A stretch of DNA of 63,472 nt, counting the filler, from Welwitschia mirabilis (lineage: Eukaryota), in NCBI GenBank assembly GCA_051453625.1. It is 6 parts of one record of this genome, joined end to end, with 100 filler letters (N's around TTAATTAATTAA, not from the genome) between each part and the next. Parts side by side here need not be neighbours in the genome. Positions count along the whole stretch, not along the records: positions 9,068 to 39,818 come from JBOZIK010000001.1; 5 more parts are not named here. One strand, written 5' to 3'. Position numbers and translations under genes: made by a program. How positions within the stretch are numbered: position 1 is the stretch's first letter; each line of letters begins with the position of its first letter. The notes below the pieces were generated by a model, which saw nothing but the letters and a program-made list of their open reading frames with translations, did not search any database and was not told where the DNA came from. Below, in pieces: positions 8,968 to 58,966 of this stretch.

Positions 8968-9067
8968 NNNNNNNNNNNNNNNNNNNNNNNNNNNNNNNNN
9001 NNNNNNNNNNNTTAATTAATTAANNNNNNNNNNNNNNNNNNNNNNNNNNNNNNNNNNNNNNNNNNNN
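8968..9067. other. Artificial scaffold linker (44N-TTAATTAATTAA-44N)
   Basis: Identical 100-nt construct occurs five times; the 12-mer has stops in all six frames. Confidence 0.97.
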
Positions 9068-10611
9068 TCATGTGTGATGCTAGTAATTTTACTGTGGGTG
9101 CGGTATTTTTTCCAAAAGTATAAGAAGGATTTTAAAGTTATATCTTACCATAGGAAGTCATTATCTAGAGAACAAATGAACTATACTACTACAGAAAAAG
9201 AAATGCTTGCCATTATCTTTTGCCTTGGTTCTCTTAGATACTATCTTTTAGGCTTTTACATGAATGTTTATACCAACTATACGCCTTATGACCAAGAAAT
9301 ATTCTAGCGCTCATTTGATTAAATGGATCCTTCTTATGCAAGAATTTAATTTAACCATCATAGATAAAGTAGGGAAGCACAATTCTGTGGTCGATCATTT
9401 TTCTCGACTTTCTTCTCCTCCAGATGACTTTCTCATTGATGATTCCTTTCCTGACGAGTAGCTTTTCACTATTTCTTCTTCTCATCCTCCTCCATAGTAT
9501 GCCAACATTGTCAACTATCTTGTAACTATGACAACACCATAACATTGGACCTATTTCCAGCGTAAATCTTTTCTCCATCATATAGGTAACTACGAGTGGA
9601 TCAAGCCACATTTGCACCGTAGGTGCAAAGACCAGATTATGAGAAAATGTGTGCCTAATTAGGAAATACATGAGATTCTTCATCTTTGTCATAGTGGTAT
9701 TTATGGAGGACATTTTAGTGGACACAAAACTGCCATGAAAATCCTCCATTCTGGTTTTTACTGGCCTTTTCTTTTTCGAAATTCATTTGATTTCATTAGA
9801 AGGTGTAATCCTTATCAGCATTTTAGTAGCCTTGTTCATTCATAGGAAATGCCCCTTAGACCTATTCTTGAGTGTGAGTCTTTTGATTATTGGGGTATTG
9901 ATTTTAAAGGCCCTATTCACCCACCTTTTTTTAAATAAAAATTACATTTTAGTGGCTATTAATTACATGACTAAATGAGTTTAAGCCATATCTACTTCTT
10001 TGAATGATGCTCAAATTGTCTATCATTTTCTTAGAACTCATATCTTTTAGAGGTTTTTTTTTCCTATAGTCATCATTAGTGATCAGGGTACTCATTTCAT
10101 AAATTCACTTTTTAAGAAACTTCTTATATCTATAGGTATTAAGCATAGAATAGCTTATGCTTATCATCCACAAAAAAATGGACAAGCTAAAAATGCTAAA
10201 AGAGAAATAAAGAAAATGCTTCAAAAACTTATCTCTATTAATAAAAAAAACTTGGACTTCTAAGCTTAACAATGTAATTTGGGCCTATCATACTACTCAG
10301 TGTACTTCTATTGGTTTCTCATCTTATGAACTTATTTATGATAAAGTTTGTATTTTACCAGTTGATGTGTGTTACAATTCTTATCGTACAACTCATCAAC
10401 TCAATCCTATGGACTTTTTTGAAAATCTTAAGTACAGGTTAGCACAATTAAATCATCTTGATGAAAAAAGAACTACTACCATACATCGTCAATTAATTCA
10501 TAAAGCTCAAGTAAAGTTTAAACATGATAAAAGAATTTTTCATAAAAAGTTTGAACTAGGTCAATTTGTTTTGTTGTATAACACTAGAGTTCATCTTTTG
10601 AATAAGAAATT
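9068..10611 (+). pseudogene. Athila-like pol remnant: RNase H and integrase
   Basis: CDASNF, NYTTTEKEMLAIIF, KWILLMQEFNLTIIDK, DDSFPDE, zinc-binding CHSGIYGGHF...GFYWP, WGIDFKGP, ISDQGTHF, AYHPQKNGQ. Disrupted. Confidence 0.9.
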
Positions 10612-13087
10612 NNNNNNNNNNNNNNNNNNNNNNNNNNNNNNNNNNNNNNNNNNNNNNNNNNNNNNNNNNNNNNNNNNNNNNNNNNNNNNNNNNNNNNNNN
10701 NNNNNNNNNNNNNNNNNNNNNNNNNNNNNNNNNNNNNNNNNNNNNNNNNNNNNNNNNNNNNNNNNNNNNNNNNNNNNNNNNNNNNNNNNNNNNNNNNNNN
10801 NNNNNNNNNNNNNNNNNNNNNNNNNNNNNNNNNNNNNNNNNNNNNNNNNNNNNNNNNNNNNNNNNNNNNNNNNNNNNNNNNNNNNNNNNNNNNNNNNNNN
10901 NNNNNNNNNNNNNNNNNNNNNNNNNNNNNNNNNNNNNNNNNNNNNNNNNNNNNNNNNNNNNNNNNNNNNNNNNNNNNNNNNNNNNNNNNNNNNNNNNNNN
11001 NNNNNNNNNNNNNNNNNNNNNNNNNNNNNNNNNNNNNNNNNNNNNNNNNNNNNNNNNNNNNNNNNNNNNNNNNNNNNNNNNNNNNNNNNNNNNNNNNNNN
11101 NNNNNNNNNNNNNNNNNNNNNNNNNNNNNNNNNNNNNNNNNNNNNNNNNNNNNNNNNNNNNNNNNNNNNNNNNNNNNNNNNNNNNNNNNNNNNNNNNNNN
11201 NNNNNNNNNNNNNNNNNNNNNNNNNNNNNNNNNNNNNNNNNNNNNNNNNNNNNNNNNNNNNNNNNNNNNNNNNNNNNNNNNNNNNNNNNNNNNNNNNNNN
11301 NNNNNNNNNNNNNNNNNNNNNNNNNNNNNNNNNNNNNNNNNNNNNNNNNNNNNNNNNNNNNNNNNNNNNNNNNNNNNNNNNNNNNNNNNNNNNNNNNNNN
11401 NNNNNNNNNNNNNNNNNNNNNNNNNNNNNNNNNNNNNNNNNNNNNNNNNNNNNNNNNNNNNNNNNNNNNNNNNNNNNNNNNNNNNNNNNNNNNNNNTCTA
11501 ATGGTTTTTAAAATTTAGGTTATTTGTAAGTGTTCTTTTTTGTCTTTTATCTTAATTATTCACCTTCATATTTCTTGAGTGTATGATCATGTGGGAATTT
11601 TAATTGAAAAAAGAAGAAGAAGAAGAATAAAAACAAATAAAGTCCATGATGTTTTTTATTTATTTTATCTCAAAAACATGGTCATCATAATGTCCTACTA
11701 CAAGTACATTAGGGCAAATATTTCCAAGAGGAGCCTTTAGCAGTGTAATATGGTAGTTATGGGAACTCCACTAGGAGGTCGATTGGCCATGCTTTGCAGG
11801 TCTTTACTCCTCTGACAATGGTTGCACTCCCCTCATCATGGTAAAAGAAATAAAAAACTTTGAGGTTAGGGATCAGTGATGTTCTTGGTGTCATTAAAGG
11901 CATTGCTTGTTTCCTAGACTCTTAGTATTCCCACTTGATCATTTCACTTTTAAAGATTCTAATGAGTTTGTAGAGAGAAAGTAGATGAGTTCATTTTTAA
12001 GTAACTTTTGATTTTGACATTCATTGTTCTAAACACTTGAAACTTTGGATATCACCATAACCACCGCCTTTTTGTATGAACTCATGCATATTTACTTAAT
12101 TGATGTTATGATGTTTTCCTTGGGAGTTTTCTAAGTTAATACTTAAGATAGGTAAATAATCTTCTCCTTGTGCCTTCTGTCCATTTTCATTTTGGTTTTC
12201 TTCGGTTTTCGAGTCTACTTTTCAAAGTCATATCTACATGTTTTTTATTTCTTCTTAAGACCTTAATCATTTAGTAGTTCTCTTATTGTTCCATCATGAT
12301 AAAATGTTTTTCTCAAAATGAATTTTCATAAAAAAACAATATTTTAAAAGAATGACTTTTTCCAATCTTCATGAGTTCCCTTGTAGGTTATTGAGTTCTA
12401 AGTCTATCATGCATTCATTATTCTGNNNNNNNNNNNNNNNNNNNNNNNNNNNNNNNNNNNNNNNNNNNNNNNNNNNNNNNNNNNNNNNNNNNNNNNNNNN
12501 NNNNNNNNNNNNNNNNNNNNNNNNNGGTTATTGAGTTCTAAGTCTATCATGCATTCATTATTCTGTTTGGGAACATTTATTTAGTTTTTATTAAAGGTTT
12601 TTAACCCAGATAATCTATTTTCTTCAGCCATAGTTTTTCCTTTTTGTATGTTTCTATTCCTCTTCCTTTGATTTTTTTTCTATTTTTATCGTATTTTCTC
12701 TATGCTTTATGAGTTTTTTGTCTTTTTCCTTTTTAGAACTGTCACTTTAAAGATCCTATCTAAGATTAACTTTCTTATCTAATGATTTTATTCTAAAAAA
12801 TGTTTTTTATCCCCCATTTCCCCCCTTGTTGCCTAGACGACACTGTGGTGAACGACAGACTAATTTTTACTGTTAGTGTCTTAAGTATGTCGTCGGGATG
12901 ACACGACCAGACAACAGTGTGATAAAAGTGCTGTCCAAACCCTTTTATCTTTATTTTCACTCATTTTCTCATCATTATCCTTTGTTCATTTAATAGATGA
13001 TGACCCCTCTGGCTAGTAGCAGGATTTTAGGACTTGTCCTGCCTAATTTCATGGCTAGATTTGGAAGATTTCTTCAAATTCGCAGAA

Positions 13088-14961
13088 ATGAGGTATGTTT
13101 TTCTCTCCTCTTGATTTTTCATTTTTTCTCTCTTTTTTTAGCCTTTTGATGTGTAATTTTGACATATATCAATCATTTTATCACACTGTTCATTTTGGGA
13201 CTTACGGATCTGATTTTCACCGCATATTTTTTGAGTTATGATCGCCTTTGTGTATTACGAGGAATTTTCAGGTTTTTACTTTTCGCACTCATGTTCTCAC
13301 AAACCATAAGTCAAATTATAGTAGTCGTTTAGGCAAAATTGATTAGTGCGATGTGCTCTATGACTTTACTAGATTAGATTTTTTATTTGAGTACTTTAAT
13401 TTTTCACTTCTTATGGGGTCCACTACATACATAGTGTTCGAATTTCTTCATTTTTCTGTTTTTTTTTTTTTAATTAAGAAATTTGGGACACATTACATAA
13501 TTTAGGAGGGGGTAGGACATATTTTTAGAATTTTTAATTATTTATCTATTTTAGAGGTCATTATTGTGCATCCATGTGATGTTTTCAACTTGTTTATCTG
13601 TTTTCACATAACGAGTTTAGTGTTTGTAGTTGAGTAGGCCATGTACGCATAGAGCTAGACAAGAAAAGGCTTTAGCTAAGTTTTTAGGGTAGTCAACAGG
13701 CCTTTTGGTTGAACCTAAGATATAGCATGTGGAGCCCACACACCCACCACCTCGACACGGTTGATCCTTGAGCATACAGATAGCTAGCATTCATGTCAAG
13801 AGACATTTTGGTGATTTTATGAGTCGCATAGAGTCATAGGTTAATTAGAGATTAACAAAGTTATAGCTTAGATGAATCACAGATGCACATGGTACATATT
13901 ATGCTTCTGAGACAAGAGAGTTCTATGACACCATGCATTCAGAGAGGCAACTAGAGACTCGTGATCAGCTATAGGACATGATTGTTGCATACATTTGAGA
14001 CCATGAGATTGCTATTCTTCCACCTCACATTGTATTCATCACAGATCTCGAAGGACTTGGGAGCTTACATATTCATTTAGTTAATGTGATAGAGGAGAGT
14101 CGAGCTTATGGGGCCATTTTAGATATTCCAGCTGATATGCCCACTGATCGATAGTGGGTAAATGTTACCTGGCTGACCCCCACATATAGAGTTTTACACA
14201 TAGGAATAATTTATAACATCAGTCCATTATGCCATGATAGTCATGCTATGGTTGTGCATTTACAGATTCTAGTAGCTTTCTGTTAGGGGGAGTAGATGGA
14301 GTTATCGATCTTTATCTAGAGGAGACTTAGGTCTATTATTGAGACATGACATTTATAGACATTTGGTTATTCATGCCTTCTCTTAACTTTATTCAGATAA
14401 TTAGGGATCCCTGATTCCATTGGTAAGCGATGTTTCTCACATATCCAGACTTCTGCTTGCTATTTATAGGATATAGGTATATAGATACCAGGAGAGGCAG
14501 AGAAACCTTAGGTATAGAGACCTGTAGTTGGAGCTTCATTAGAGTAGATCTAGATCCTTCTAGCTGAGACTGCCAAGTCCCTCCAAATATTTGTTCATCA
14601 GAGGTTGCAGAACTTCGAGCAGAGAGTTAAGCAGTGGATCCTATTCTTCGAGCAGAAAGTTAAGTAGTGAATCCTATCCTTCGAGCAGAGAGTTAAGCAA
14701 TGGATACTATCTATTGAGAGGAGAGCATAGCACACAGAGGATCAAACAGTAGACATGCGCCAGCACATTGTCTCCATTTAGCAGAATATGACTGTAAACC
14801 TTCCAGAGTCAGTACGTGTATAGGATGATGAGACAGTTAGGTCTATTATAGCATCTCTTGATGACTGTTTCCCCATAGATCTTAATCATCCTTTTTCCTC
14901 TTCCCCTGCTCCTAAACTAGTTCCTGAACTAGGGTTCATCATGTGTAGACGAGGGGAGTGA
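13088..14961 (+). pseudogene. Spliced accessory ('env-like'/putative plant transposon protein) gene, copy 1: exon 1 13088-13092, intron 13093-13637, exon 2 13638-14961
   Basis: ATGAG|GTATG...GTAG|GCCA joins in frame (MRPCTHRARQEK). One frame with no frameshift to TGA at 14959-14961. Motifs YYASETREFY, LTPTYRVLHIGIIYNISP, GYSCLLLTLF. More than 20 premature stops. Splicing is inferred. Confidence 0.7.
14614..14712 (+). repeat. 3 x 33-bp in-frame tandem repeat (FEQRVKQWIL[F/S])
   Basis: Units start at 14614, 14647 and 14680. Only one unit is present in the copies near 36600 and 57400. Confidence 0.92.
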
Positions 14962-15478
14962 TTTTATATTATATTTTGTATCTCCCCTTCTACACTTTTT
15001 TTTACTAAAAAAGATCTCATTATTATATAGACATATCATTTCGTTTCAGCATGGTGTAATATTTTTATCTGATTTTTACATGATTATCTATCAACTTTTT
15101 TTTAATGATAAGGATTACATATTTTGGGTAAAATTTTATAATTAAANNNNNNNNNNTATCACAGTGGGGGGTTATTTATCATGATTAATTAATTAACTAA
15201 GAAAATCAATTTCTATCGTAGGTTTTAATTTTGAAAACCCTTTGCAAGGCCTATCGTAACCTATATCGTCTAGATGATAGGACAGATGACCAAACTTTGA
15301 TGCATAATAAGTGTTTTGTTCAGTGTTCTTAATTCTTTAAAAATTCAGTCTATCTCTGAAATATTTTTTAAATATTTTTGAGATAATTTATTTAGGTATC
15401 CTAGTTACTTTTATTGTCTAAATAAGTTGGCTCGCAAATAAGGTTTACCACCTCGTTTTGTTAGGGACTGACAAAGCT

Positions 15479-15491
15479 AAGTGGAGGGCTA
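15479..15491 (+). other. Polypurine tract of A1
   Basis: aagtggagggcta immediately before the LTR TG. Confidence 0.8.
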
Positions 15492-16591
15492 TGTTGCGAT
15501 GCCAACTTACATGTATTTAATAGGATATTCTGAGTTGTTTTTCAAGTAAATTGGCAGATAAATGCTTGGATTTCATGATAATAGAGAAGCGAGATGAAAA
15601 GAATGGAAATATGCAATTTCCTAGATAAATTACAAGCATTCCAGGCGAATACAAATAAATAGTATTTTGGATAATAATTTCCTACAAATAATAAGGTTAA
15701 AGCATTGATGGAAGACCCATTAAAAGGCTATCATCCACATAATTGTCCGGATGATGTAACGGATGATAATGCCACTGCATGATGACAGGTCTGATAGACA
15801 GTCAGACTGATAGCAGATGGGATTTAACTATGAGTTGGCATTGTCTCTTATATTGTTCAGACGACTAGCTGGAAAATGCTGATAGTAATGCCTGCACTGA
15901 ATGTTCACCTAAACTTTTGCCACCTATTCTGATTTCTTTCTACAAGACAGATATGATTTCCCCTCCTATACCTTTCTATCAATTTCATTTCATGTTTTGA
16001 GTTAATAAATAGAGATTTCCCCCTTGACTCCTGATCATCTTTGATTATACCCAACATACTCATGACAGGAGATCGAGAGACCAGAGAACCATCCTATAAT
16101 TTCAGAGAGATGTTTCCTTAGTGTTGGGTAGTATTTTCCTCCATTGAGGTATGCCTACTTTGTAATACAGATGTGGTGTGCATTTTAATGTAAAACATTT
16201 CTTTTATGTTCAATGTATGAATGATCTTCTCCCTCATAGTTTATGTTATTTTAGATTTAATGACAAGCTTCTCTTATAATATAGATTATGAGAGAAAATT
16301 TTGTCAAGGTTGTTCTTGGTTAGTTTAGATGCATTGTTATTTTCTTTCCTAGATTAATCTTACACAAGTGTGTTTTATTTCATTTNNNNNNNNNNNNNNN
16401 NNNNNNNNNNNNNNNNNNNNNNNNNNNNNNNNNNNNNNNNNNNNNNCTTTTATTTTCATACTTTGGCCTTCAAGGGATTATGACATTCGAGTCACTCTCG
16501 TCTATATTAATGTATTGTTTTTGTGCATATTATTTATAGTTAATAGGATTCTAATCAAGATATAAACATTGCATAAATACACACCGTAACA
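15492..16591 (+). repeat. 3' LTR of A1 (~1.1 kb)
   Basis: TGTTGCG...CCGTAACA termini; homologous to 32708-33716, 34730-35824 (rc) and 55520-56612 (rc). Confidence 0.9.
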
Positions 16592-19500
16592 CTTTTTAAT
16601 CTCTCTATTCATATTTTTGGCTTGGTCACTAATTTGAGGATTATAAGCATATGCAGTTATATGTTCAATTCCAACGGATAAAAGAAGTTTCTAAAATAAA
16701 ATAATTTTCTTAATTACTAATGATAATTCTAGAAAAACCAAAACATTGAAAGATATGAGTTCAGANNNNNNNNNNNNNNNNNNNNNNNNNNNNNNNNNNN
16801 NNNNNNNNNNNNNNNNNNNNNNNNNNNNNNNNNNNNNNNNNNNNNNNNNNNNNNNNNNNNNNNNNNNNNNNNNNNNNNNNNNNNNNNNNNNNNNNNNNNN
16901 NNNNNNNNNNNNNNNGTTTACATTTAGGCATAGGTTTAAGGGGTGTATCTTAAAAATGAGTTAGGATACTATAACGTTGACAAGCATTACACCTTCTAGC
17001 AAAGTCAAAAGAGTCTTTAAAGAGGGTAGGCCAATAAAAACTAGAATGAAGAATTTTTATTATAGTATTTTAGCCACTAAAGTATTTCCCACATAGCTTA
17101 CAATGACAAAGGTTAAGAATCTCTAAGCTTTTCCATTCAGACATACATTTACACATGATTTGGTCTTTGCATCTTTAATAAAGATTAAATTCATTCTACT
17201 TATAGTCACCAATCCTATGGAGAAAAGACTTTCATTCATTATGATTCTAATGCTAAGATGTTTTCATGGTAATAAGGTAATTCATAATATTAGCATATCA
17301 AGGAGCAAGATGAGTAAAAGAGATGGCCTACAGTTGTTCATAGCAAATAGCTGTTCATTTAGAAAGGAGTCATTTATGGAAAGTTCATCATGAGAACAAC
17401 AGAGTCGAGATAAGTGATCTATAATGCTAATATGTTTTCTAATCTTATCAATGATGGTAAAATTAAATTCTTAAATGAGAAGGATCTACCTAATAAGTCT
17501 GATACTAAAATCTTTGTTAGTCATAAGATAGCATATGGTTGCATTATCTATGCAAACATTAGCATGAAATCCAACAAGATAGTGTATAAGATGAGAAATG
17601 CAAAAGATGATGATAGGCATTTCCTTTTAGTAGTAGTATAGTTGGATTGGGATTTGGACAAGGTTTTACTAAGATAGGATATAAGTTTAAGATCATTTTT
17701 ACATTTTGGCCAAGAATCCCATCCATATCAATGTTACTTGAGTTGCACATGAGTTTAAAATATCTACTCTGAGTGGGACCCATGATAATAGGTTTAGAAG
17801 NNNNNNNNNNNNNNNNNNNNNNNNNNNNNNNNNNNNNNNNNNNNNNNNNNNNNNNNNNNNNNNNNNNNNNNNNNNNNNNNNNNNNNNNNNNNNNNNNNNN
17901 NNNNNNNNNNNNNNNNNNNNNNNNNNNNNNNNNNNNNNNNNNNNNNNNNNNNNNNNNNNNNNNNNNNNNNNNNNNNNNNNNNNNNNNNNNNNNNNNNNNN
18001 NNNNNNNNNNNNNNNNNNNNNNNNNNNNNNNNNNNNNNNNNNNNNNNNNNNNNNNNNNNNNNNNNNNNNNNNNNNNNNNNNNNNNNNNNNNNNNNNNNNN
18101 NNNNNNNNNNNNNNNNNNNNNNNNNNNNNNNNNNNNNNNNNNNNNNNNNNNNNNNNNNNNNNNNNNNNNNNNNNNNNNNNNNNNNNNNNNNNNNNNNNNN
18201 NNNNNNNNNNNNNNNNNNNNNNNNNNNNNNNNNNNNNNNNNNNNNNNNNNNNNNNNNNNNNNNNNNNNNNNNNNNNNNNNNNNNNNNNNNNNNNNNNNNN
18301 NNNNNNNNNNNNNNNNNNNNNNNTGTATTAAAAGCAAGTTGATATGAATCATTCTAATCAAATTTAGCTTCTTTTTTAGTAATAAGTGAAGGGATTTATA
18401 AATGTTAGCATAATGATGAATAAAATGATAATAGAAACTAGCATGATCAAGGAATGATCTAATTTATTTGATATCAGTTAAAGGGTTAAGATTTTTAATG
18501 ATATCAACTTTCGCAGGGTCCATCTTAATCCCTTCATTATAAATTTGGTGACCTAAAATAATTCCATTGTTGACAAGGAGGAAACTTCTTTTCTAGCTCA
18601 AGTGTAGGCCACTCTTTATACATCAATTTAAGACTTTCTCTAATCTTTCTATGATTTGTTAAAAAATTTTACTAAAGATGAAGAAATCATCCATAAATAT
18701 TTCAATAATATCCTCTATCATATTAGAAAAAATCCCCATCATTACTCGTTGGAAAGTTCCAAGGGCATTGCAAAGTCTAAAAGGCATTCTTCTAAAAGCA
18801 AAGGTTCCAAAGGGGGAGGTAAAAGTTATTTTTTCTTAGTCTTCACTTGCTATGAAAACTTGATTGTAACTACTATACCCATCAATAAAATAATAGTAGG
18901 CATTCCCTTGGATTCTATTAAGCACTTGATCAAGAAAGGGTAAAGGGTAATAATCCTTCTTAGTATCCTCATTAAGTTTTCTAAAATCAATGCACATTCT
19001 TATTTTCCACTCTTTTTGAAACTATTATTAAAGGGCTAGTCCACTAACTATCAGATATAGCACAGATGATCCTAGCATCCATAAGTTTAATAATTTCATC
19101 TTTAACTACTTACTTAAGGATTGGTTTGAGTCTTCGTTGGGGTTGCCTAAGAGGTTTAGCATTATTCTCAAGGTAGATTTGGTGTTGGACTATGGAAAGA
19201 GGAATGGAAGATAAGTCTTTATGGGCCCAAGTAAAAGAATATTCTTTAAAAGTCAAAAGTGAGATCAGGCTAGATTCTTATTAAGGAATAAGAATATTAC
19301 TTATTATTAAAGGTTTATTTAGGTTTTTAAATAAAAAAATGTATTTTAGACCTTTGGGAAATCCTTTTAGTTCTAAGTTGGAATTTTTAGTTTAGGTGCT
19401 AAATTGCCATTAATGACTGTCATCTGAGGATGTTGTGGGGATGACATCAGAGGATGACATCCTTTAAAAAGATTTTCCATTAAGTAAACATGTTGTATTT

Positions 19501-21722
19501 TCTCCCAGTTGAAAAATTATTCGTTCTCATGCTCAAGATAGTGTATTTCAGCCAGGGTATCATATAAAATTGGTTCATGCAGCATTAATATTCTCTACTC
19601 AATTGGGCGATGCTATAAAAAGAAGGCTAGTTTAAGTTCTTCTTCTAAGTTATACTCATCTTCTATTTCGTTTTTGGTAGCATTAAAAACTTGAATGATG
19701 AACTTTTTATTACCTATGTCACATACCATCATTCTGGTCTGTGTGTCAATGATACAGTGAACAGTTGCATAAAAGGCTCTTCATAGGAGTAGTGGATAAT
19801 CTCCATCATATTCCACCTCAATGATGACTACATCTATGGGGTAAAAATCTTCCTCTATTTGGATAACTAAGTCATTGATAATTCCTAAGGGTTACTTAAT
19901 TGAGGTATCAACTAATTTCAAGATGATTCATGTAAGTTCCAATTTGTTTTTCTAACCCCAAGTCTTTTACATATGTGAAGAGGCATGATGTTTACACTAG
20001 TCTCTATGTTAATTAAAGCTTGTTGAATCCTTTTATTTCTTTTTAAGGTGACACTTACTATTGCTGCCCTAGGGTCTTTAAATTTAGGACACTTTTTCAT
20101 CACTAATTTGAATATAGATTGAGCAAGGAAAACATTACTACGAATGGTACATTTTTATTTTCTTCTTACTAGGTCTTTCTACAACTTAGAATATTTAGGA
20201 TTTTCTTACAAGAATTTCTAAAGAGATAAGTTGATTTTTATCTCTTACATTAAGGCCTTTAAGTACTCATTATAGGTAGCATGCATGTTTAATCTATTAA
20301 GCCAAGAAATACATGGTTTCTTCACTTTGTTTTCTTATAAAGAATTTTTAGTAATGGGCTTAGCATGTGATGTTGATGGAAAGATATATATGTCCAAAAT
20401 TTCTACATCATCTTCTTCATTAATTTTTTAATTATTTTTGAAATTTAAAATCTTATAGGTAGGAGGTATTGTATCATTTCCACTTCTTATTACTATCTGC
20501 AAATCTCTCTTAACTTCATTTGGATTAAGTAAAAGTTAAGATATAAGATACCTTTGTGGTCTTCGATTGATGAGAATTATTTGTTGGAGCACATTCACTA
20601 AGTTTTCAATATTATTATTAGTCTTTTCTTACATCTTTTTCAATTCTTCTATGAAATTTCTAAGTGGATCATTTTGCTTTAGTTGAAGATTGGGGTTATT
20701 TGGTTAGAAGTTTGAATTCCTGAATTTATTCTCAAAAGGTTTCCATTGTGATTATCCACCTAATCTTTGTTGAAATTGTGATTGAATTTTAAAGTTAGGT
20801 ATTCTTTTATTGAATGCACATACTACCTCAAACATCCTCTCTTTACAAGTTGGTAATAAAGGACACTCTTTAGTTTGATGAGAGTTATTTTTTACAAATA
20901 TTACATGTTGAAGTTATGTTGTCATCTTTTATTATCTTTGCATCAACTATAATTTGAGTGTACTTATCCAAAGTGGTATGAAATTCTTAATTATATTATT
21001 TAAATCATCTTTCTCTTCTTCCTTGTCATGTTTTACTTTCTTTAAATCTTTTATGATTTGGCCTACAGTTTGATTTTGCTTACAAGTGGATTTTGGTCAA
21101 GTTGAACTTATTTTTACTAGATTTTACAATAGATTCCATGCATCATTTAAAATTAAGTTCATCAAGTTACCACCATAAGAAAAATCTACAAGTTATTTTG
21201 TTTGAGTAGTTAATCCACTGTAGAAATAATCTATCAATTTGTTTTTTACAGAATTCATTAATAGGATTGGAATGGATAACTATGATAAAACACTCATAAG
21301 TTATGGCATAATCCTTGTGAGGTTGTTGTTGAAAGTTGATAACTTTCTTCCTTCTTTTTCTCATGGTAATTTTGCTCAAAATTCTTTTAATGAAACTTCT
21401 TGCGATTGATTCCATGATTTAAGACTCTCATGTGAAATGGTTTTAAACCAAAGTTTTGCCTTTTCTCTAAGCATGACTAGAAAGATAATCATGTAAATAT
21501 GATTACTAATGTGTTTCTTCCCATTTTCTAAGATAAGTACAAGTTGTTCTATGTTGGCTAAATGTTGAAGAGGATATTCTTTAGGTTCCTCCAAAAATAT
21601 TAGATAGACACTCAAGTTTTTTAATTATATGTCATCACCAGTAGGTAGATTAAAAGGATTTTGGATTTTATAATTTCTATTATAAATTAAATCTCTAAGT
21701 GTATTATTTGCATTTGAAGTTG
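16592..21722 (-). pseudogene. gag-PR-RT-RH-INT remnant of host Athila-like element H
   Basis: gag (YPLQHLANIE, LREKAKLWF), protease (KFKDPRA, ALINIETSVNIMP), RT ~18330-19260 (IFMDDF), RNase H ~17400-17800, integrase (AYAYNPQ...NREIKK) cut at 16592. Confidence 0.9.
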
Positions 21723-23188
21723 TATTAGATTATATTTTACCAATTAACATCAAACTAATGTTTTTTGTATAGCAAATTTTGTGCATTTTGTCCAAAAGAT
21801 ATGACATTACTTGCAGGTTAGAGATGGAACTAAATTGATTAATTTCTAAGCATTAGAAATCTATTATTTTATTTATCTCAAGATGGGATCGATCGGATTT
21901 TGATGGGATTGACTAAAACTGTAAACTCATGAAACCAGTGTCCCTAAACTGAATGGTAAGGGGTCGACTAGACCTGTAATGGTTTCGACTAGATTTGAAT
22001 ACCTCACAGACAGTATCCTTGGATTGAATGATAAGGGATCGACTAGATCTATGATGGGGTTTGCTGGACCTGTGCACTATGCAGCTAGTACGCCTAGATC
22101 AATTGTCATGGGGGGTTAAGCAGAACTAGGATGGGGTCGACTAGATTCAATGTAAGAAATAGGAAAGATTTTTTATCAACAAAGCAAGTGACTGGATAAA
22201 TAGTAGGCAACCAGACTGGGATTTACCGGACCCAGATGGAGTCGACCGAATAGGAAGGCATAAGAAATTGAAGTGACCGAATTTCTCTCTCAGATGACTT
22301 GTGTAACTCATGACACCACATGAGGTCAACCGGATTTTTGTGCAATCGACTAGACAGAGCAGAAAAGAAGTTTTTATAAACATTACATATTTGTTATGTA
22401 GTAGTTAGTAGCCATTTTCTACCCTTTTGTAGCCATTAGATGTGCAAATCAAATGTAATAAACCCTAAAAGCCTTCTATTATAAATACATAAGCCATAAA
22501 GGATAAAAGAACCTTTTGACCTTTCTTAATCTTTTGGAACTATTCTAATTTTGGTCAAATCTATTGGATCTAAAGGATCAAGTATTAGATTGATGTGATT
22601 ATCATTGTTGTATCTTTGCATTCACATTTCTAACTAAAGGAGATCTAATATTGGCATACTCTCTACATTTAAGGTTATATCTAGAGCTTCATTGGTTGTA
22701 CTTCTCTAAGAGGAGAGATTCATTAAATGTACTGATTCTAGAATGAGTGATATCTATGCTTTTAAGGCATCACTGCATCACTACCCTATGTGCTAAAGGT
22801 TGAGGCTAAGCCTTGAAAATCTTGTGCTAAAGGTTAAGACTAAGATTTGAAAAGTCCATTTTAAAGGTTGAGACTTAGCCTTGGAAAATTCTATTTATAA
22901 AGGTTTCAGGTAAACCTGGAATACCTAGTGGAGTAACAAAGATATGAGATCTAGCTTGGGATAAGTTGATCATCGAGAGTGGAGTAGGAGGTTTCCCAAA
23001 CCACTCTAAATCCAACTTGCATCAAAGTGGTATTTTGTGATTTCAGTTTTCAATTCTTTACTTATTGTGCACTTCTTATAATAGTTTATTTATTTATTCA
23101 AGTTGTGTTTTAGATTGTTTTCTTTCAAATTATTTGTTAAAAATTTAAAAGAACCTATTTACCCCCCTCATGGTTCTCGATCCTATCA
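21723..23188 (+). repeat. Sirevirus LTR1
   Basis: TATTAG (decayed TGTTG)...CCTATCA; GTCGAC motif array; TATA (tataaata, ~22480); 3 x ~35-bp repeats at ~22795-22900. Confidence 0.9.
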
Positions 23189-23190
23189 TT

Positions 23191-23202
23191 TGGTATTAGA
23201 GC
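23191..23202 (+). other. Primer binding site (tRNA-iMet type)
   Basis: tggtattagagc versus canonical TGGTATCAGAGC. Confidence 0.85.
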
Positions 23203-23253
23203 TAAATTAAATCTATGATAGATTTTAACTAATCTTAACCCTAGAACTCTAAA

Positions 23254-25270
23254 ATGAGTAACCCTTTTAATGGTTTTTCAACTGGGCATCCACCTACATT
23301 TGATGAGTTGAACTATGTTTATTAAAAAGCTAGCATGAGAATATTTTTTAGATCCTTAGATGCTAACATAGAAAAAGTCATCTACAAAGGTTATACTATG
23401 CCTATGTTAACCCAAACTAATGTAAATGGCAATATTATCCTAGTTTCCAAATCCCAAGACCAATGGATAGCCACAGATAAGTCAAAAACCACCATAGATG
23501 CCTATGCTCTTAGTGCAATTTTTTGTGTAATGTGTGCAGATAAGTTCAAATGATTAGTGAATTGTAACCATGCTAAGAAAGCTTGGGACATTCTTGAAGT
23601 AGCACATGAAGGAACTTTAACTATTAAACAAGCTAAACTCTAGATGATCATCTCTAAATTTGAAGATATCCATATGGATGAAGAAGAAACATTGCAGGAA
23701 TTTTTTACTAGACTTATTAATATTGTGAACTAAATGACAAGCCTTGGAGAATGCACGGAGGAAAGAAAAGTGGTAAGGAAAGTCTTGAGATCCCTACCCA
23801 AGAGATTCCAACGAAAGGTCATAGACATCAAAGAGAGTAAGAACATTAATGCAATGGCATTGGAATAACTTCAAGGTAATTTATAAACCTATAAACTTAA
23901 ATTTGTTAAAGATAAAAGAAAAGGTATTGCTTTACAATGTGTGTAAAAAGACTATAGATCTAACAGATCATATGAAAAATTTGATGATGATGAAGTGGCT
24001 TTTCTAGCTAGAAGATTCAGAAAATTTCTTCATAGGAAGAAAAAGGAAGAATAATCAAGTAGGAATGTAAAGAAAAGTCATCCAAAATAAAGAAGGGAGC
24101 AAGAAAAGATGAAATAAATCTAATGATACTCATGCAAAGGATTTGGACATACAACAAATGAGTGCCTTGACATAAGGAGAGATAAAAAAAAGTTAAAGAA
24201 TCCCTCATTCATGGCTACTTGGGATAATGAAGATGACAGGATGAGGAAAGTTATTCAGAACATGAATCAGACAGAGATAGAAGGTTATCTTTTCTGGCTT
24301 TTGTGCCATCACTCAAAAATGTTCCTAGCACATCAATGCCTGATGATTTGGATATAATCAATAAAGAAGAGGATGAGTTAGAAAACATATGTCAAGAGTT
24401 GTATAAGAAATTTGAAAAGCTAGCTAAGAGAATAAATAAGTTAAACAAAACAATGAAGACTATTAGTAAAGAAAAAGAGGAATTGGAAGAGAAATATAAT
24501 GTGCTTAAATCTGACAACATCAATCTAATTTCTCAAGTAAAATATCTTTCCTTTTCTGTAAATAATTTTTTTGGTAGCTTTTCTAAATTGGAACAGATGC
24601 TTGGAGTACGAAAACCCATTGGAGACAAATCAAGTATTGGCTTTAGTTCATAAAAATCACAGGAACAGGTAAATCAGAAGAGTAAATATGTTTCTAATCT
24701 TTCATACAATTTTTGTGGTAAATTTGGTCATTCAAAGACTTTTTGCAAAGTTAGACAATTAATGTTTTTCTCTAAAACTATAAACACTTTGCCTTTTAAG
24801 TTTGTTCCTAAGAAAAGTATATCACCTAAGTCTAATAAGACTAAGTAGATTAAAGCTAACAATCTTTAAAGTTTTCTGACATAAATAGATCTCAAAGGAC
24901 CACATACGATCAGTTGGTATCTAGACAGTGGTTACTCAAGGCATATGTCAGGAGAAAAATCAATCTTTCAACATCTAAAGAACATAAATGGAGGAGAAGT
25001 TATCCTTAGAAACAACAAAATGGTAAAATAGAAGGTACTAGATGCATCAAGAGAGGTAAGTTACCTAAACTTGATGATGTTCTTTATGTTAATGGATTGA
25101 AACATAATTTAATTAATGTGAGTCAATTATGTGATAAAGTTCATAAAGTAATATTCGAAAAATCAAAGTGAAATGTTGTAGATGAAAAAATAAATACTTC
25201 TATTTTTTCTGCAAAACATGTGGATAGTACTTATAAATTAAATGTTAAATTAATTGATCAGTTATTCCAT
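23254..25270 (+). pseudogene. Sirevirus gag + protease (internal domain A); INT/RT/RH absent
   Basis: MSNPFNGFSTGHPPTFDELNYVY*KASMRIF, AKKAWDILEVAHEG, KVLRSLPKRF, knuckle-like FCGKFGHSKTFC, protease WYLDSGYSRHMSG. No integrase or RT follows. Confidence 0.9.
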
Positions 25271-28710: not shown

Positions 28711-28775
28711 TTGGTATCAGAGTAGGTTAAGTCTTTTCTTAAATCTTAACCGATCTAGACTTTAGAATCACATAA

Positions 28776-30955: not shown

Positions 30956-31055
30956 NNNNNNNNNNNNNNNNNNNNNNNNNNNNNNNNNNNNNNNNNNNNN
31001 NNNNNNNNNNNNNNNNNNNNNNNNNNNNNNNNNNNNNNNNNNNNNNNNNNNNNNN

Positions 31056-34729: not shown

Positions 34730-37700
34730 TATTATGGTGTGTATTTATGCAACATTTACATTCTGATTAGAATACTGTTAATCATAAATAATATGCACAA
34801 ACACAACATACTAATATAGATGACAGTGACTCGAATGTCATAATCCATTGAAGGCCAAAATATGAAAATAAAAGAGTTACTTTCAAAATGAGAAATATTG
34901 TAATCTAACCTATAGAAATAACTTGCAATGCATGAAAATGAAATAAAACATACTTGTGCAAGGCTAACCTAGAAAAGAAAACAACAATACACCTAAACTA
35001 AGGAAGCACACCCTTGACAAAAGTTACCCTCATAATCTATATTACAAGAGAAGCTATCATCAAATCTCAAATAACATAAATTATGAGGGAGAAGATCATT
35101 TATATATTAAACAGAAAAAGAAATATTTATATTAAAAATCACACCACATCCATATTATAAAGTAGATGCACCTTAATAGAGGAAACGCCATTCAACACCA
35201 AGGAAACATCTCTCTGAAACTACAGGATGGTACTCTGATCCCTCAATCTCCTGTCATGAGTGTATTGAGTACAAACGAAGATGAGAAGAAGTCGAGGGGG
35301 AGACCTCTATTTATTGACTCAAAACATGAAATGAAATGGATAGAAAGGCATGAGAAATCCCTAACCGTTATGCAAAAATAAATCAGAATAAGTAACAAAA
35401 CTTAGGTAAACATTTAGTATAGGCGTTATAAACAGTGTCATCAGGCGGATCGTCTGGACAATAAAGGAGACGATGCCAACTCATAGTTAAATTCTCATCT
35501 GCTGTTAGTTAGACTACTAGTGAGACCTTAGTCATTATCCAGTTGGTGCGGTCGTCTGTTCTGTCCTCCAGATGATGAGATAAACAAGGGCTTCAATAGA
35601 TCTTCAATCAGTGCATTAACCTTGTTGTTTACAGGAAGTTATCATTCAAAATACAGATTATTCATATTTGCTTAGAATTCTTGTAATTTATTAAGGAAAT
35701 TGCATATTTCTATGCTTTTCATCCCAACTTTCCATTATCATGAAAACCAAGCCTTTACTTGTTAATTTACCTACAAAACTACTCAGAATATCCTATTAAA
35801 TATACATAAGTTAGCGGTGCAACATAGTCCTCCACTTAACCTTGTCAGTTCCTGATAAAACTAGGTAGTAAACCATATTTGCGAGCCAACTTGTTAGAAA
35901 ATAAAAACAACTAGGATACTTGAAGAAATTATCTCAAAAAGATTTGAATAATATTTCAAAGATTAACTGAATTTTTAAAAAATTAGAAACACTGAACAGA
36001 AACACCTATGAAGCTTTAGATATTGGTTGTCTGGTGGTGTCGTCTAGACGATGAATGAAACTATAGACTCTGTAAAGGGTTTTTAAAACTAGAACTTACG
36101 ATAAAAATTGATTTTCTCAAATAATTAATTAATCATGATGAGTAGACCCCGACTATGATAAATAGTCAAATATAAAGATTTTCCCTAAGTAAAATGCAAT
36201 TCTCATAATGAAAATCAAAAAATAATCATGTAAGATTCAGACAAAAATAGTACATCATGCTGAAAAGAAATGATATGTCTATATAATAATAAAAGATTTT
36301 AATACAAAAAAGTGTAGAAGGGGATATACAAAATATAATGCAAAATCACTGCCCTCGTCTACACATGATGAACTCAAGTTTAGTAACTAGCTCAGGATGA
36401 GGGAAAGAAGAAGGAAAATGCTCAAGATCTGCAGGGAGACAGACATCAATAAATGCTATAATAGACCTGACTGTTTCATCACCTTGGACACGTACTGACT
36501 CTGGAATGTCTACAGTCACACTCTGCTAAATGGAGACAATGCACTGATGCATGTCCATCATCTGATCCTCTATGTGTTGTACTCTTCTCTCGATAGATAG
36601 GATCCACTGATCAATTCTCTGCTTGAAGGTCTAAAAGCTCTGACCAAAAAAACCTCTGATGGTCTTAGTAGTCTCAGCTAGAAGGTCCTTGATCTTTTTT
36701 AATGAAGCTCCAATTGTAGGTCTCTGTACCTAAGGTCTCTCTTCCTCTCCTGGTACCTATATATCCAAATCCCATAAATAGCAAGCAGAAGTTTGAATAT
36801 GTGAAATACATCACTCACTTATGGGCTCTGTTATCTCAAATAGTCTAAACAAATCTAAGAGGAGACATGAATAACCAAGTGTCTATAGATGTTGTGTCTC
36901 AATCATAGACCTGAGTCTCCTCTAGATTAAAGTGAATAAATCCATCTANNNNNNNNNNGACCATAGTGTGACTATCATGGTATGATGGACTGATGTTATG
37001 AATTAGTCCTCTGTGCAAAACTCTATATGCAAGGGTTAGCTGAGTAACATTTACCCCCTATTGATCAGTGGTCGAATTAGCTGCAATGTCTAAAATGGCG
37101 TCATGAGCTCAATGCTCCTATATCCCACTAGCTGGATAAATATGCAAGCTTCCAAGTCCTCCAAGATCTATGATGACTGTAATGTGAGATGGGAGGATAG
37201 CTATCTCGTGGTCTTGAATGTATGCAACAATCATGTCTTGTAGCTGACCACGAGTGTCTGGTCGACTCTCTATATGCATGGTGTCATAGAACTCTCTTGT
37301 CTCAGAAGCATAATATGCATCACGTGAATCTATGATCCATCTAAGCCATAACTCTATCAATCTCTGATCAACCTTAGGCTCTATGCAGCCCATGAAATCT
37401 CCAAAGTGTCTCTCGACATGAATGCTAGCTGTCTGGGTGTGTGGGCTCTGCATGCTGTATCTCAGGCTTGACCAAAGGGCCTGCCTCTTACTCTATAAGA
37501 TCAGCTAAAGACTCTCCCTATCTAACTCTATGCATACATAACCTACTTAATCACAAACATAAACTCGGCATGTGAAAACAGATAAACAAGTTGAAAACAT
37601 CGCATGGATGTGCAATAACGACCTATAAAATTGATGAAAAATTATTAAAAATACTAAAAACATGTCTTGTCCCTTTTTAAAAAATGCAATGCATCCCAAA

Positions 37701-39818
37701 TTGCCTTCGTGAGAGAAAAAATGGAAAAAGTCTAAAAACTGTGTATGTTGTGGGCCCCATAAGAAGTGAAAAATCAAAATACTCAAATGAAAAATATAAT
37801 CTAATAAAGTCATAGAGCACATTACACTAATCAATTTTGCCTAAAGGACCTCTATAATTCAACTTATGGTTTATGAGAAAACAAGTGCGAAAAATAAAAA
37901 CCTAAGAATACCTCATAATACGTACAAGTGATCATAACTCAAAAAATATGCAGTGAAATTCAAATCCGTAAGTCCCAAAATGAAGAGTGCTAAAAACTAA
38001 ATAATATACATCAAAATTGTGTGTCGAAAGGCTGAAAACAGGGAAAAAAGTAAAAAACAGGAGGAGAGAGAAACAGACCTCATTTTTCAAATTTAAAGAA
38101 ATCTTGTGAATCTGGTAATAAAATCAGGTAGGATAAGTCCTAAAATGCTAGTACTAGCCAGAGGGATTATTGTTTCTCAAAAGAATGAAGGAAAATAACA
38201 AGAAAATGAGTGAAAATAAGGAAAAAGTGTTTGAACTACAGTTTTATCGCACTGTCATCCGCTAGTGTCGTCCAAATGACAGCCCTAGGATGACTAACAG
38301 AAAAATCAAGCTGTCGTTCGCACAATGTCATCTAGACAACCATGTGGATGATGGAACACCAAAAAGATTTTTAAAAGAAAAACNNNNNNNNNNNNNNNNN
38401 NNNNNNNNNNNNNNNNNNNNNNNNNNNNNNNNNNNNNNNNNNNNNNNNNNNNNNNNNNNNNNNNNNNNNNNNNNNNNNNNNNNNNNNNNNNNNNNNNNNN
38501 NNNNNNNNNNNNNNNNNNNNNNNNNNNNNNNNNNNNNNNNNNNNNNNNNNNNNNNNNNNNNNNNNNNNNNNNNNNNNNNNNNNNNNNNNNNNNNNNNNNN
38601 NNNNNNNNNNNNNNNNNNNNNNNNNNNNNNNNNNNNNNNNNNNNNNNNNNNNNNNNNNNNNNNNNNNNNNNNNNNNNNNNNNNNNNNNNNNNNNNNNNNN
38701 NNNNNNNNNNNNNNNNNNNNNNNNNNNNNNNNNNNNNNNNNNNNNNNNNNNNNNNNNNNNNNNNNNNNNNNNNNNNNNNNNNNNNNNNNNNNNNNNNNNN
38801 NNNNNNNNNNNNNNAAAAATCAAGAGGAGAGAGAAACATACCTCATTTTTGCAATTTGAATAAATCTTGCAAATTTGGCAACGAAATTAGGTAGGATAAG
38901 TCCTAGAATGCTAGTACTAGCTAGAGGGGTTATTGTCTCTTAAAAGAATGAAGGAAAATGATGAGAAAATAAGTGAAAATTAGGAAAACGAATTTGGGCC
39001 ACGGTTTTATTGGACTGTCGTCCACTCACTGTCATCTGCACAATATCGTCTGGATGACCATGTGGATGATGGAACACCAAAAAGATTTTTAAAAGAAAAA
39101 CATCAGCCATGAAAGTTAGGCTCAGATAAGACCATTAAAGTGACAGTTTTAAAAAGGAAAAGGATAGAATCCCATAAAGCACACAGAAAACACAAGAAAA
39201 ATAGAAAAACTAAAGGAAGAGGGATAGAAACATACAAAAGGGAAAAGTATGGCTAAAGAAAACGGATTATCTACGTTGAAAACCTGCAATAAAGACTGAA
39301 TGAATGTGCCCGAATAGAAAAATGAAAGCATGACAGACTTAGAACTCCATAACCTACAAGGGAACTCATAAAGATTGTGAAAAAGATGTACTTTGAAACA
39401 TTTTTTTATGAAAATGTGTTTTTAGAAAAACATTTTATCAATATTTGAATAACAAGAAAACTACTAAATGATTAAGATCCTAAAAAGGAATAAGAAAATG
39501 CGAAAATGACTTTGAAATAGTAAACTCAAAAATCAAAGAAAACCAGAGTAAAAATGAACACAAGGAACAAGAAAAGATTGTTTACCTATCTTAAGTATTC
39601 ACCAAGAAAACTCCCAAGGAAAACATCATAACATCACCTGAGTAAATATGCATAACAAAATGTATTAACTCCATAAAGTTCATTCGAAAAGGCAGTGGCT
39701 ATGGTGATATCCAAAGATTCAAGTGTGTAGAACAATGAATGTCAAAACCAAAAGTTACTTAGAAATGAATTCATCTACTTTTACTCCACAAACTCATCGG
39801 AATCTCCAAAAGTGAAAT
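34730..39818 (-). mobile_element. Athila-like element A3, 3' half (3' LTR 34730-35824, PPT 35825-35837)
   Basis: Reverse-complement colinear with ~11940-16591. Confidence 0.9.
36346..38083 (-). pseudogene. Spliced accessory gene, copy 2 (exon 1 38083-38079, intron 38078-37543, exon 2 37542-36346)
   Basis: ATGAG|GTCTG...GTAG|G; contains ORF 37118..37453 (AYYASETREFY); ends FIMCRRGQ*. Confidence 0.7.
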
Positions 39819-57132: not shown

Positions 57133-58966
57133 TCACTCCCATCATCTACGCATGATGAACTGTGGCTCAACAGCCAGCTTAAGAGCAGGGGAAGAAGAAG
57201 TAAGATGCTTAGGATTTGTGGGGAGATAGACATCTAGAGATATGATGATGGATCTAATTGTCTTATCTCCCTAGGCATGAACCAACTCAGGAATATCTAA
57301 AGTCATACTCTACTGAATAGAGATAATGCACTAGTGCATGTTTACCATCTGGTCCTTTATGTGCTATGTTCTCCTCTCAATGAATACGATCCACTACTTA
57401 ACTGTCTATTCAAAATTCTAAATCCTTTAATTGAGTGCCTAGATACTTCTATCTATGAAACCTCTGATGGTCTCGATGGTCTCAGCTAAGATAGCTTGAA
57501 TCTATTTAAGAAAAGCTCTAATTGTAGGTCTCTGTACTTGAGGTCTCTCTGCCTTTTATAGAGCTTATATATTCATGTCATGTAGATAGTAAACAGATGT
57601 CTAAGTGTGTAAAACATGTTGCTCATGCATGGGCTCTGGTATCCCAAATCGTCTAAAAAGAGCTAAGAGGAGGCATGGATAACTAAGTGTCTGTAGCTAT
57701 CATGCCTCTATCATGGACCTAAGTCTGCTCCAGATAAAAGTCGATAAATTCATCTGCTCCCCTATTGAAAAGCTGCTAGAATCTAAAGGTGCACCACCAT
57801 GGAATGACTATTATGAAATGATGGACTGATGTTATGAATTAGTCCTCTATGTAATAATCTATAAGTAGGGGTCAACTAAGTAACATTTACCCATCATTGA
57901 TCTATAGTCAGGTTAGTTGGTATGTCTAAAATGGCATCATAAGCTCAACGCTTCTGTATTCCACTAGCTGAATGAATGTGCATACTCACAAGCCCTTCAA
58001 TATCTATGATAATAAAAATGTGTAATGGAAGTATGACTATCTCGTGATCTTGTATGAAGGTGATGATTAAGTACTGAAGCTGTCCACGAGCATCAGGTTG
58101 CCTTTCTATGTGCATGGTATTATAAAATTTTCTCGTCTCTGATACATAATAAGATTCATGCACATCTATGATCTAATGGAGCCATAAATATATCAACCTA
58201 TGATCTACCTTAGGCTCTATATGGTGCATGAAATCTCTAAAATATCACTCAACATGGATAGTAGTAGTCTGTATGCTCAAAGATTGACCATGTTGAGGTG
58301 GCATATGCATGGGCAATGCATGCTCAATCTCTAGCTCTGTCAAAGGGCTTTCCTCCTACTCTATAGCCTCAGCCATTTTCTAAACCTATCTATCTCTACA
58401 CATACGTGGCCTACTCAATTTTCGAAGACAAAAAAAATTATCATGCGAAAACAGATAGATAAGTTAAAAACATCGCATGGATGCAATAACGATCCTTGAA
58501 ATTGATAAAAAACTAGAAAAAATATTAAAAATATGTCCTGCCTCCTTCTAAAAGATGCAATGCATCTCACATTATCTAAATGTATGAAAAGAAAGGAGAA
58601 AAATGTGAAAAGTATGAAAATAATACTTTTAGTAGACCTCACATAAAGTGAAAATTGAAAGTGTTCAAATAAAAAATCTAATTTAGAAAACTCGTAGAAC
58701 ACATTGAAATGATTAATTTTGCCTAAAGGCTTACTACGTCTTTATCTATGGTTTGCAAACAAATGAGTGCAAAAAATAAAAATTTGAAAATACCTTGTAA
58801 AATATAAAAAATCTTATATCTCGAAAAATATGTGGTAAAATTTAAATCCATAAGTCCTAAAATAAAGAATGCAAAAAATTAAATGATATATGTGAAAACT
58901 ACATGTCGAAAGGCTGAAAAATAAGAGGAAAAAAGAAAAATAGAAGGAGAGATAAACATACCTCAT
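57133..58966 (-). pseudogene. Spliced accessory gene, copy 3 (exon 1 58966-58962, intron 58961-58411, exon 2 58410-57133)
   Basis: ATGAG|GTATG...GTAG|GCCACGT gives MRPR; contains ORF 57945..58163 (SYYVSETRKFY). Confidence 0.7.

Follow-up and report, generated by a model that had tools for sequence, protein, structure and literature searches.

Does an Athila-like accessory gene in Welwitschia mirabilis take its start codon from a coding exon of only five nucleotides, joined to the rest of the reading frame across an intron of about 540 nucleotides? The initial annotation of this locus proposed such a micro-exon and regarded the gene as an independent spliced transcription unit lying in the space that separates pol from the 3' LTR. 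Our results support the gene itself. The micro-exon and intron form a coherent model which the sequence allows, and the evidence does not raise it above its rivals.

Sequence material and methods

The window, i.e. the whole stretch of DNA analysed, comprises 63,472 nt of the W. mirabilis assembly GCA_051453625.1 in six record parts joined by fillers of 100 N; positions 9,068 to 39,818 are from JBOZIK010000001.1. It is AT-rich (GC 0.17–0.36 in 2-kb steps) and contains numerous N runs. The comparison set consists of the three element copies within the window, copy 1 on the plus strand and copies 2 and 3 on the minus strand, which are 70–80% identical to one another in DNA. Coding constraint was tested by counting transversion columns by codon position across the three copies. 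Splice donors were scored as matches to the nine positions of the consensus MAG^GTAAGT (^ marks a splice boundary). Pfam queries were decayed frames with 3–28 stops per query read as X. For the RNA check, four runs labelled as the same species were placed on 9068–16385 at 80% likeness.

Copies of an Athila-type element

The window holds three old, dead copies and one partial duplicate of what is, judging by its sequence, an Athila-type Ty3/gypsy retroelement; the putative label 'Athila' is based on the layout and the ORF domain only. The features that define the element and its copies are the following.

9119..10170, plus strand: pol remnants of the copy-1 element (Pfam matches on X-read frames)
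about 9119-9286, plus strand: RNase H of the copy-1 element (PF17917, E 1.3e-9)
about 9651-9824, plus strand: integrase zinc domain of the copy-1 element (PF17921, E 8.9e-7)
about 9937-10170, plus strand: integrase core of the copy-1 element (PF00665, E 9.9e-8)
13638..14961, plus strand: body of the accessory ORF, copy 1 (441 codons, 28 in-frame stops, stop codon last)
15166-15171, plus strand: G-run, polypurine-tract-like core before the 3' LTR region (motif match)
36346..38083, minus strand: copy 2 (ATGAG 38083-38079, skipped stretch 38078-37543 of 536 nt, ORF 37542-36346)
57133..58966, minus strand: copy 3 (ATGAG 58966-58962, skipped stretch 58961-58411 of 551 nt, ORF 58410-57133)
38834-38848, minus strand: fourth AAATGAGGTATGTTT instance, located where the copy-2 upstream region is partially duplicated

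Pol domains follow one another on one strand in the order known from Ty3/gypsy elements, RNase H and then integrase; the RT region is partly N, and an N run (10612–11496) comes after the copy-1 pol remnants. The long spacer between integrase and the 3' LTR contains the sense ORF 13638–14961, which in copy 1 stops about 205 nt 5' of the G-run. In the consulted parts of the sources, a G-run polypurine-tract motif is described for Athila-like elements (PMC2844528), and a spacer with a sense extra ORF near the polypurine tract is described for the Athila clade (PMC2844528, PMC7264820). LTR-like similarity among the copies extends past the G-run, up to 16385, and the 5' LTR and leader of the element are barely recognisable. 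Decay by C>T and G>A is heavy in all copies. Two frame breaks and a 10-N gap interrupt the ORF of copy 2, a single frame break interrupts that of copy 3, and the partial duplicate carrying the fourth donor motif abuts an N run (38384–38814).

The accessory gene and its former constraint

The gene is real and was formerly under purifying selection. Over 13822–14961 the transversion columns of the three copies are distributed 50/15/62 among codon positions 1/2/3 (P=2e-8), and the same test made copy pair by copy pair gives P=1.8e-6, 4e-5 and 0.018. In the downstream non-coding control the corresponding counts are 73/58/58, and in the proposed intron they are 13/22/29, with no codon periodicity. 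Indel events number 5 in the 1324 nt of the ORF, two of them multiples of three, against about 10 in the 545 nt of the proposed intron and about 40 in 1420 nt downstream. Together with the layout and a Transposase_32-type domain, this coding constraint bears out the view in the initial annotation that the gene is an Athila-type accessory gene.

The protein would have about 380–440 residues, with a predicted Transposase_32 ('Athila domain') core followed by a coiled-coil tail: in the copy-1 ORF the Transposase_32-like domain occupies residues 79–258 and the C-terminal half is coiled-coil-like. PF20167, one of two Pfam families that the initial annotation had named for checking, matches three of the six in-frame pieces (best E 1.8e-6), although all scores lie below the gathering cut-off of 45 bits, as expected for decayed queries. 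Copy 1 reaches 18.6 bits (E 0.0018) over profile positions 7–177 of 177, and copy 2 is the least decayed within the domain, with 3 stops in 159 codons. An AlphaFold model of the domain built from the three decayed rows has a mean pLDDT of 38 and is unusable. Homologue searches gave the following: an exhaustive phmmer search with copy 1 read with X had as its sole match an artefact on a 33-nt tandem repeat, word-indexed searches with copy 1 and with the copy alignment returned no match each, and among metagenome contigs the domain piece of copy 2 had 188 pattern matches, none of them a relative. The repeat in question lies inside the ORF.

14613..14711, plus strand: in-frame tandem repeat of 33 nt x 3, copy 1 only

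At its site copy 2 is without 66 nt and copy 3 without 45 nt.

Regarding the nature of the protein, copies 1 and 2 have no 19-residue window with a Kyte-Doolittle mean of at least 1.6, and the six such windows of copy 3 lie at a position where the other two copies are not hydrophobic. No membrane segment is thus consistent among the copies, which argues for an accessory protein and not an envelope protein; the 'env-like' label rests on membrane segments, which the ORF described here does not have. The closest described counterpart in layout is the ORF(+) of sunflower Athila 14, for which the consulted part of the source gives 487 aa, PF20167 at 133–312 and a predicted nuclear signal (PMC11728184). 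As far as that part goes, the two share a sense accessory ORF, PF20167, the lack of a membrane segment and a basic, nuclear-signal-like region, which is present in the Welwitschia ORF as well (PMC11728184). Unlike the Welwitschia frame, the sunflower ORF is described there as continuous, with about 130 residues ahead of the domain (PMC11728184), whereas here the frame 5' of 13638 is closed and T-rich and all copies are dead. The consulted part of another report presents an 'Athila domain' protein modelled as a coiled-coil pentamer (PMC13547354). The copies studied here are decayed and belong to a kind of retroelement accessory gene that has already been described.

The proposed micro-exon and intron

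The proposal concerns the following stretches of copy 1.

13088-13092, plus strand: ATGAG, the proposed 5-nt coding exon 1, in the context AAAAATGAG^GTATGT
13093..13637, plus strand: proposed 545-nt intron, T-rich and indel-rich
12837..13092, plus strand: exon-like island before the donor (T 33–38% against 47–58% on either side; candidate only)
13117..13141, plus strand: strong acceptor-like site (pyrimidine fraction 0.90–0.95, then (C/T)AG^CCTT; three of three copies)

The A-rich ATGAG^GT and GTAG^G motifs reported in the initial annotation are found in all three copies where it had placed them, and the spacings of 545, 536 and 551 nt are correct. In copy 1 (plus strand) AAATGAG^GTATGT lies at 13086–13098 with its GT at 13093, TTGAGTAG^GCC lies at 13630–13640 with GTAG at 13634–13637, and exon 2 starts from 13638. 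The minus-strand equivalents are ATG 38083–38081, GT 38078 and AG 37544–37543 in copy 2 (motifs 38085–38071 and 37550–37533) and ATG 58966–58964 in copy 3 (motifs 58968–58954 and 58418–58401). None of the three copies within the window is without the 536–551-nt stretch. The window contains four occurrences of the donor motif AAATGAG^GT(A/C)TGTTT and three of the acceptor motif TT(G/A)AGTAG^G. The donor 15-mer is present in all four of its instances against 0.06 expected by chance, a count that reflects repeat copies and not selection.

Joining the two motifs does put the ATG in frame with a frame of about 441 codons, as had been claimed, but the frame runs without a break through all 441 codons only in copy 1, and there with 28 stops. 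The joined frames of copies 1, 2 and 3 start with MRPCTHR, MRLCMHR and MRPRMCR and finish, in agreement with the ends given in the initial annotation, with FIMCRRGE-stop, FIMCRRGQ-stop and FIMRR-stop-WE-stop. Its remark that an alternative acceptor (13628–13629) is present in copy 1 only is also correct.

ATGAG^GT would be a good-looking putative donor. With this consensus, GAG^GTATGT of copies 1 and 3 matches at 7/9 positions each and GAG^GTCTGT of copy 2 at 6/9, and the copy-1 site is the best match within 1.2 kb 5' of the ORF; donors matching this consensus at 7/9 positions occur 1.2–1.3 times per kb per strand in the window. The acceptor at 13637 is weak, with a pyrimidine fraction of 0.5 over the previous 20 nt and two further AGs (13628 and 13633) within 12 nt. 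The demand for a pyrimidine tract and for the absence of competing AGs is looser in plants than in animals. The strong acceptor-like site has its AG at 13140–13141 in copy 1, 38033–38032 in copy 2 and 58915–58914 in copy 3. Situated 48 nt 3' of the proposed donor, it is too close to pair with ATGAG^GT and is well placed for a long-range splice.

The T-richness of the intervening stretch, which had been noted as a feature of the intron, is real (T 46–48%) but not specific, since T reaches 40–58% at 12097–12796 and 49% after the stop codon. At a finer scale T content is 33–38% in 12797–13096, rises to 57% directly after 13092 and drops again near 13637. A pyrimidine tract and AG (12835–12836) precede the exon-like island in copy 1 and in both copy-2 instances; copy 3 is N at this place. 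An inverted-repeat-looking stretch at 12790–12945 is not structured according to RNA folding (z = -0.81), and an Rfam search over the whole window gave no match. A 32-codon frame from ATG 12997 was considered as a signal peptide and rejected: it meets the donor in the wrong phase, and the ATG is ACA in both copy-2 instances.

Junction conservation against the background

The initial annotation noted that the junctions are kept while the sequence between them varies in length. Measured against the surroundings, the junctions are not kept beyond background. The fraction of three-way invariant columns is 0.625 upstream, 0.655 in the proposed intron, 0.624 in the ORF and 0.62–0.65 downstream; since most of the divergence is neutral decay after insertion and invariance is this even, 'both junctions kept' carries no weight alone. 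One of the 24 junction G positions has been lost, where 4–6 losses are predicted from a per-copy G survival of 0.75–0.83. The resulting P of 0.01–0.1 is not a valid test because the site was chosen for being conserved.

Within 12975–13720 the three copies have in common 4 ATG, 8 GT and 18 AG, and for two of these four ATGs a GT that is also conserved follows ahead of any stop. Six conserved AGs, with every phase represented, cluster at 13633–13667, so that nearly any donor phase has an in-frame partner and the in-frame join is weak evidence. A second in-frame solution is indeed available (ATG 13579, GT 13600, exon from 13669). The lesson is that motif conservation among dead repeat copies is silent on function.

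RNA reads

Five hundred and fifty-one reads were placed. None of them is at least 99% alike and nearly all are below 90%; with no near-identical read, the locus itself is silent and the reads derive from diverged relatives. Read depth is 0–2 per bin across the proposed intron and up to about 7 over 13704–14191. The four RNA runs contain no joints, whether for the junction 13092^13638 or for any other splice, and no loose read end at 13638; the depth is far too low for this to count either way. Nor do read starts pile up anywhere in these runs, again at very low depth. A loose end of three reads at 13740 was considered as a splice and rejected, as by eye it resembles the window sequence directly 5' of it and points to a diverged relative. 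The reads of expressed relatives differ from the window mainly as A>G and T>C, which indicates that CpG-type transitions dominate.

Where coding starts

Two further positions matter for the choice of the start codon.

13819-13821, plus strand: in-frame ATG, rival start codon ('DFM' column), kept in all three copies
13608..13610, plus strand: ATA in copy 1, aligned with the ATGs of copies 2 and 3 (37571-37569 and 58444-58442)

In the first 61 codons after the proposed acceptor (13639–13821) the transversions are distributed 10/7/8, without a coding signature, and in the 61 codons after 13821 they are distributed 9/1/16 (P=0.0004). Position 2 accounts for 7/25 of the transversion columns in the first 61 codons and for 15/127 of those farther downstream (P=0.043 by Fisher test, P=0.022 by binomial test). 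The codon-position signature begins where ATG 13819 lies, which puts the constrained coding start about 180 nt 3' of the proposed acceptor. Between the acceptor and this conserved ATG, a gap of 32 nt breaks the frame of copy 2. The missing signature concerns 25 transversion columns only, and a disordered, fast-evolving N-terminus could look alike.

The most likely mode of expression in active relatives is the one reported for Arabidopsis ATHILA ORF2 and barley Bagy-2. A subgenomic RNA would be spliced from the LTR-driven full-length transcript into an acceptor within the spacer between pol and the ORF, for which there are two candidates, a strong one with a pyrimidine tract at 13141 and a weak one, TAG^G, at 13637. 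The start codon would then lie within the ORF exon, ATG 13819 being the best candidate. We favour such a start after retrovirus-like subgenomic splicing tentatively, rating it at slightly below an even chance. Several points count against it. The four RNA runs, at a depth of about 7 or less, show no joint for any splice. Base composition shifts sharply at 13092/13093 and once more near 13637, which is what exon-intron-exon would give. In every copy, position -3 of ATG 13819 is T, a poor context for a plant start codon, whereas ATG 13088 sits in AAAAATGAG. A start at 13819 leaves about 18 residues ahead of the domain here, compared with about 130 in the sunflower relative. An mRNA made with acceptor 13142 would carry at least three upstream ATGs that are kept in all copies (13351, 13574 and 13579). 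Since the 5' leader is not comparable between the copies, no long-range donor has been identified, which also counts against subgenomic splicing.

Two other ATGs of the region may have arisen by decay. Three codons into exon 2 there is an in-frame ATG in copies 2 and 3, where copy 1 has ACG with its CpG; the ATG may therefore have come about by decay instead of being the original start. The same may apply to the upstream ATG 12997 of copies 1 and 3, since both copy-2 instances read ACA in its place.

We regard it as rather doubtful that the junction 13092^13638 is used in active relatives at all. The form in which it survives best, itself unlikely, places the junction within a multiply spliced RNA that active members would make from the LTR promoter: 12837–13092 would be an internal exon of about 256 nt, ending in AUG plus two bases and joined to the ORF at 13638. 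The donor, unsurpassed over the 1.2 kb 5' of the copy-1 ORF and present in four of four instances, speaks for this arrangement, as do the A-rich context of the ATG and a join that keeps the frame and meets no stop in any of the three copies. The island 12837–13092 is less T-rich than its flanks and is preceded by a pyrimidine tract and AG in three of three readable instances; excising 13093–13637 would take out the three conserved upstream ATGs that burden an mRNA spliced at 13142, and the exon-2 ATG of copies 2 and 3 can be explained as CpG decay given the ACG of copy 1. Against these points stand junctions conserved no better than background, an acceptor with a pyrimidine tract of 0.5 and two other AGs at most 12 nt away, C at donor position +3 in copy 2, and ATG 12997 of copies 1 and 3, which lies 91 nt upstream in a different frame. 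The first 61 codons of exon 2, without a coding signature and broken in copy 2 by the 32-nt gap, also argue against it, and the zero junction reads, at this depth, are uninformative.

We consider it improbable that there is no local splicing and that translation starts at the ATG about 30 nt 5' of the proposed acceptor and reads straight through. In copies 2 (37571) and 3 (58444) the ATG shares the frame of the ORF, copy 3 is open right through to the ORF, and copies 2 and 3 differ over the stretch by 6 nt, a multiple of three. Copy 1, however, has ATA (13608) and a 1-nt shift, copy 2 has an intervening TGA, the stretch contains 1-nt and 4-nt indels, and the context of the ATG is poor (C at -3). 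Moreover, 13579–13698 is without a coding signature (7/7/6). Least probable of all, and slightly below even the straight-through reading, is the independent unit of the initial annotation, with its own promoter in the pol–ORF spacer, ATGAG as first coding exon and an intron of about 540 nt: it shares all the sequence facts for and every point against the LTR-driven, multiply spliced RNA, there is no evidence for a promoter and no pile-up of read starts (at very low depth), nothing else supports an independent transcription unit, and published descriptions, in the parts consulted, have the ORF spliced from the full-length LTR transcript (PMC7197481, PMC7264820).

Comparison with known systems

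A start inside the ORF exon, which we tentatively prefer, has its precedents in the consulted parts of two reports, where Arabidopsis ATHILA ORF2 is said to be made from a spliced subgenomic RNA (PMC7197481) and the same subgenomic splicing is reported for barley Bagy-2 (PMC7264820). The likeness to the 'env'/ORF2 gene of ATHILA and Bagy-2, within what those parts cover, lies in an extra gene after pol that here, too, would be expressed by splicing the element's own RNA, with a candidate acceptor upstream of the ORF. For ATHILA and Bagy-2, gag-pol is removed from the full-length RNA, and the same parts of these sources describe no local 0.5-kb intron with a start-codon exon. In searches of the main texts of open-access papers, no Athila accessory gene was found to be described with its start codon on a micro-exon of its own. 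Among the nearest known systems there are also antisense ORFs with a different domain, from which the Welwitschia ORF differs in lying on the sense strand.

On present evidence the window contributes decayed copies of a described gene type. If the junction were confirmed, a plant retrovirus-like element would use splicing in the style of complex retroviruses, its start codon being set on a separate exon, for its accessory protein, and this would explain why gene finders miss such genes. If true, the arrangement would be a plant counterpart of deltaretrovirus tax/rex, and an Athila element would be carrying a true spliceosomal intron.

In the deltaretroviruses HTLV-1 and BLV the tax/rex mRNA is doubly spliced, and a small second exon gives the start codon plus one base. 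The trick is the same as at the putative junction studied here, where an accessory frame close to the 3' LTR would receive its start codon from a short exon upstream; the proteins and the hosts are unrelated to those of this element. Among plant Ty3/gypsy elements, Neumann et al. reportedly described in 2003 a partially spliced intron inside pol of Ogre (Tat lineage). Ogre would thus resemble the proposed arrangement in having a true spliceosomal intron in its genomic copies, and it differs in that the Ogre intron separates pol domains, while the candidate intron here precedes the accessory gene.

Acceptor-like site and reading frame near the proposed donor

The proposed donor of the accessory gene (ATGAG|GT) has the GT at 13093 in copy 1, one of three decayed Athila-type Ty3/gypsy copies. 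Two features lie close to it:

13117-13141 (+), with counterparts at 38033 and 58915 (-): pyrimidine tract followed by (C/T)AG|CCTT, 48 nt past the donor and kept in all three copies
12997-13092 (+): 32-codon frame (MMTPLASS...) that reaches the donor in another phase

Judged by its sequence, the (C/T)AG|CCTT site is more acceptor-like than the proposed acceptor (GTAG|G, exon 2 from 13638). Copies 1 and 3 carry the initiating ATG of the 32-codon frame (12997 in copy 1), where both copy-2 instances read ACA. Two instances exist in copy 2 owing to a duplication upstream of its accessory ORF, which also supplies a fourth ATGAG|GT:

38052-38383 and 38815-39101 (-): partial direct duplication, either side of the N run 38384-38814

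The arrangement could reflect a genuine tandem duplication, or it could be an artefact of the assembly.

Tandem repeat within the accessory ORF

14613-14711 (+): in-frame tandem repeat, three units of 33 nt, inside the copy 1 ORF

At this site 66 nt are missing from copy 2 and 45 nt from copy 3. The sole match in the exhaustive protein search (phmmer, in-frame stops of the copy 1 ORF translation read as X) was an artefact of this repeat.

Expression of relatives and neighbouring elements

RNA reads from diverged relatives accumulate at 11508-11995, 15412-15655 and 16144-16385 (+), at most about 9 per bin per direction, and differ from the window there mostly by A>G and T>C. Therefore, relatives of the copy-1 element family are expressed and have decayed less than the window copies. 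Immediately past the copy-1 3' LTR region lies an inverted fragment:

16930-17709 (-): second RNase H-integrase fragment, 68% identical to 9112-9865 (+)

This fragment suggests a nested or adjacent related element. Other repeat families form direct pairs at 65-80% identity:

18498-20671 with 61063-63272
21723-25195 with 27362-31768

The 100-N and 10-N runs in the window look like scaffold gaps. Pairs of 44 Ns with 12 bases between them occur at five places (8968-9067, 39819-39918, 49967-50066, 52609-52708 and 60963-61062).
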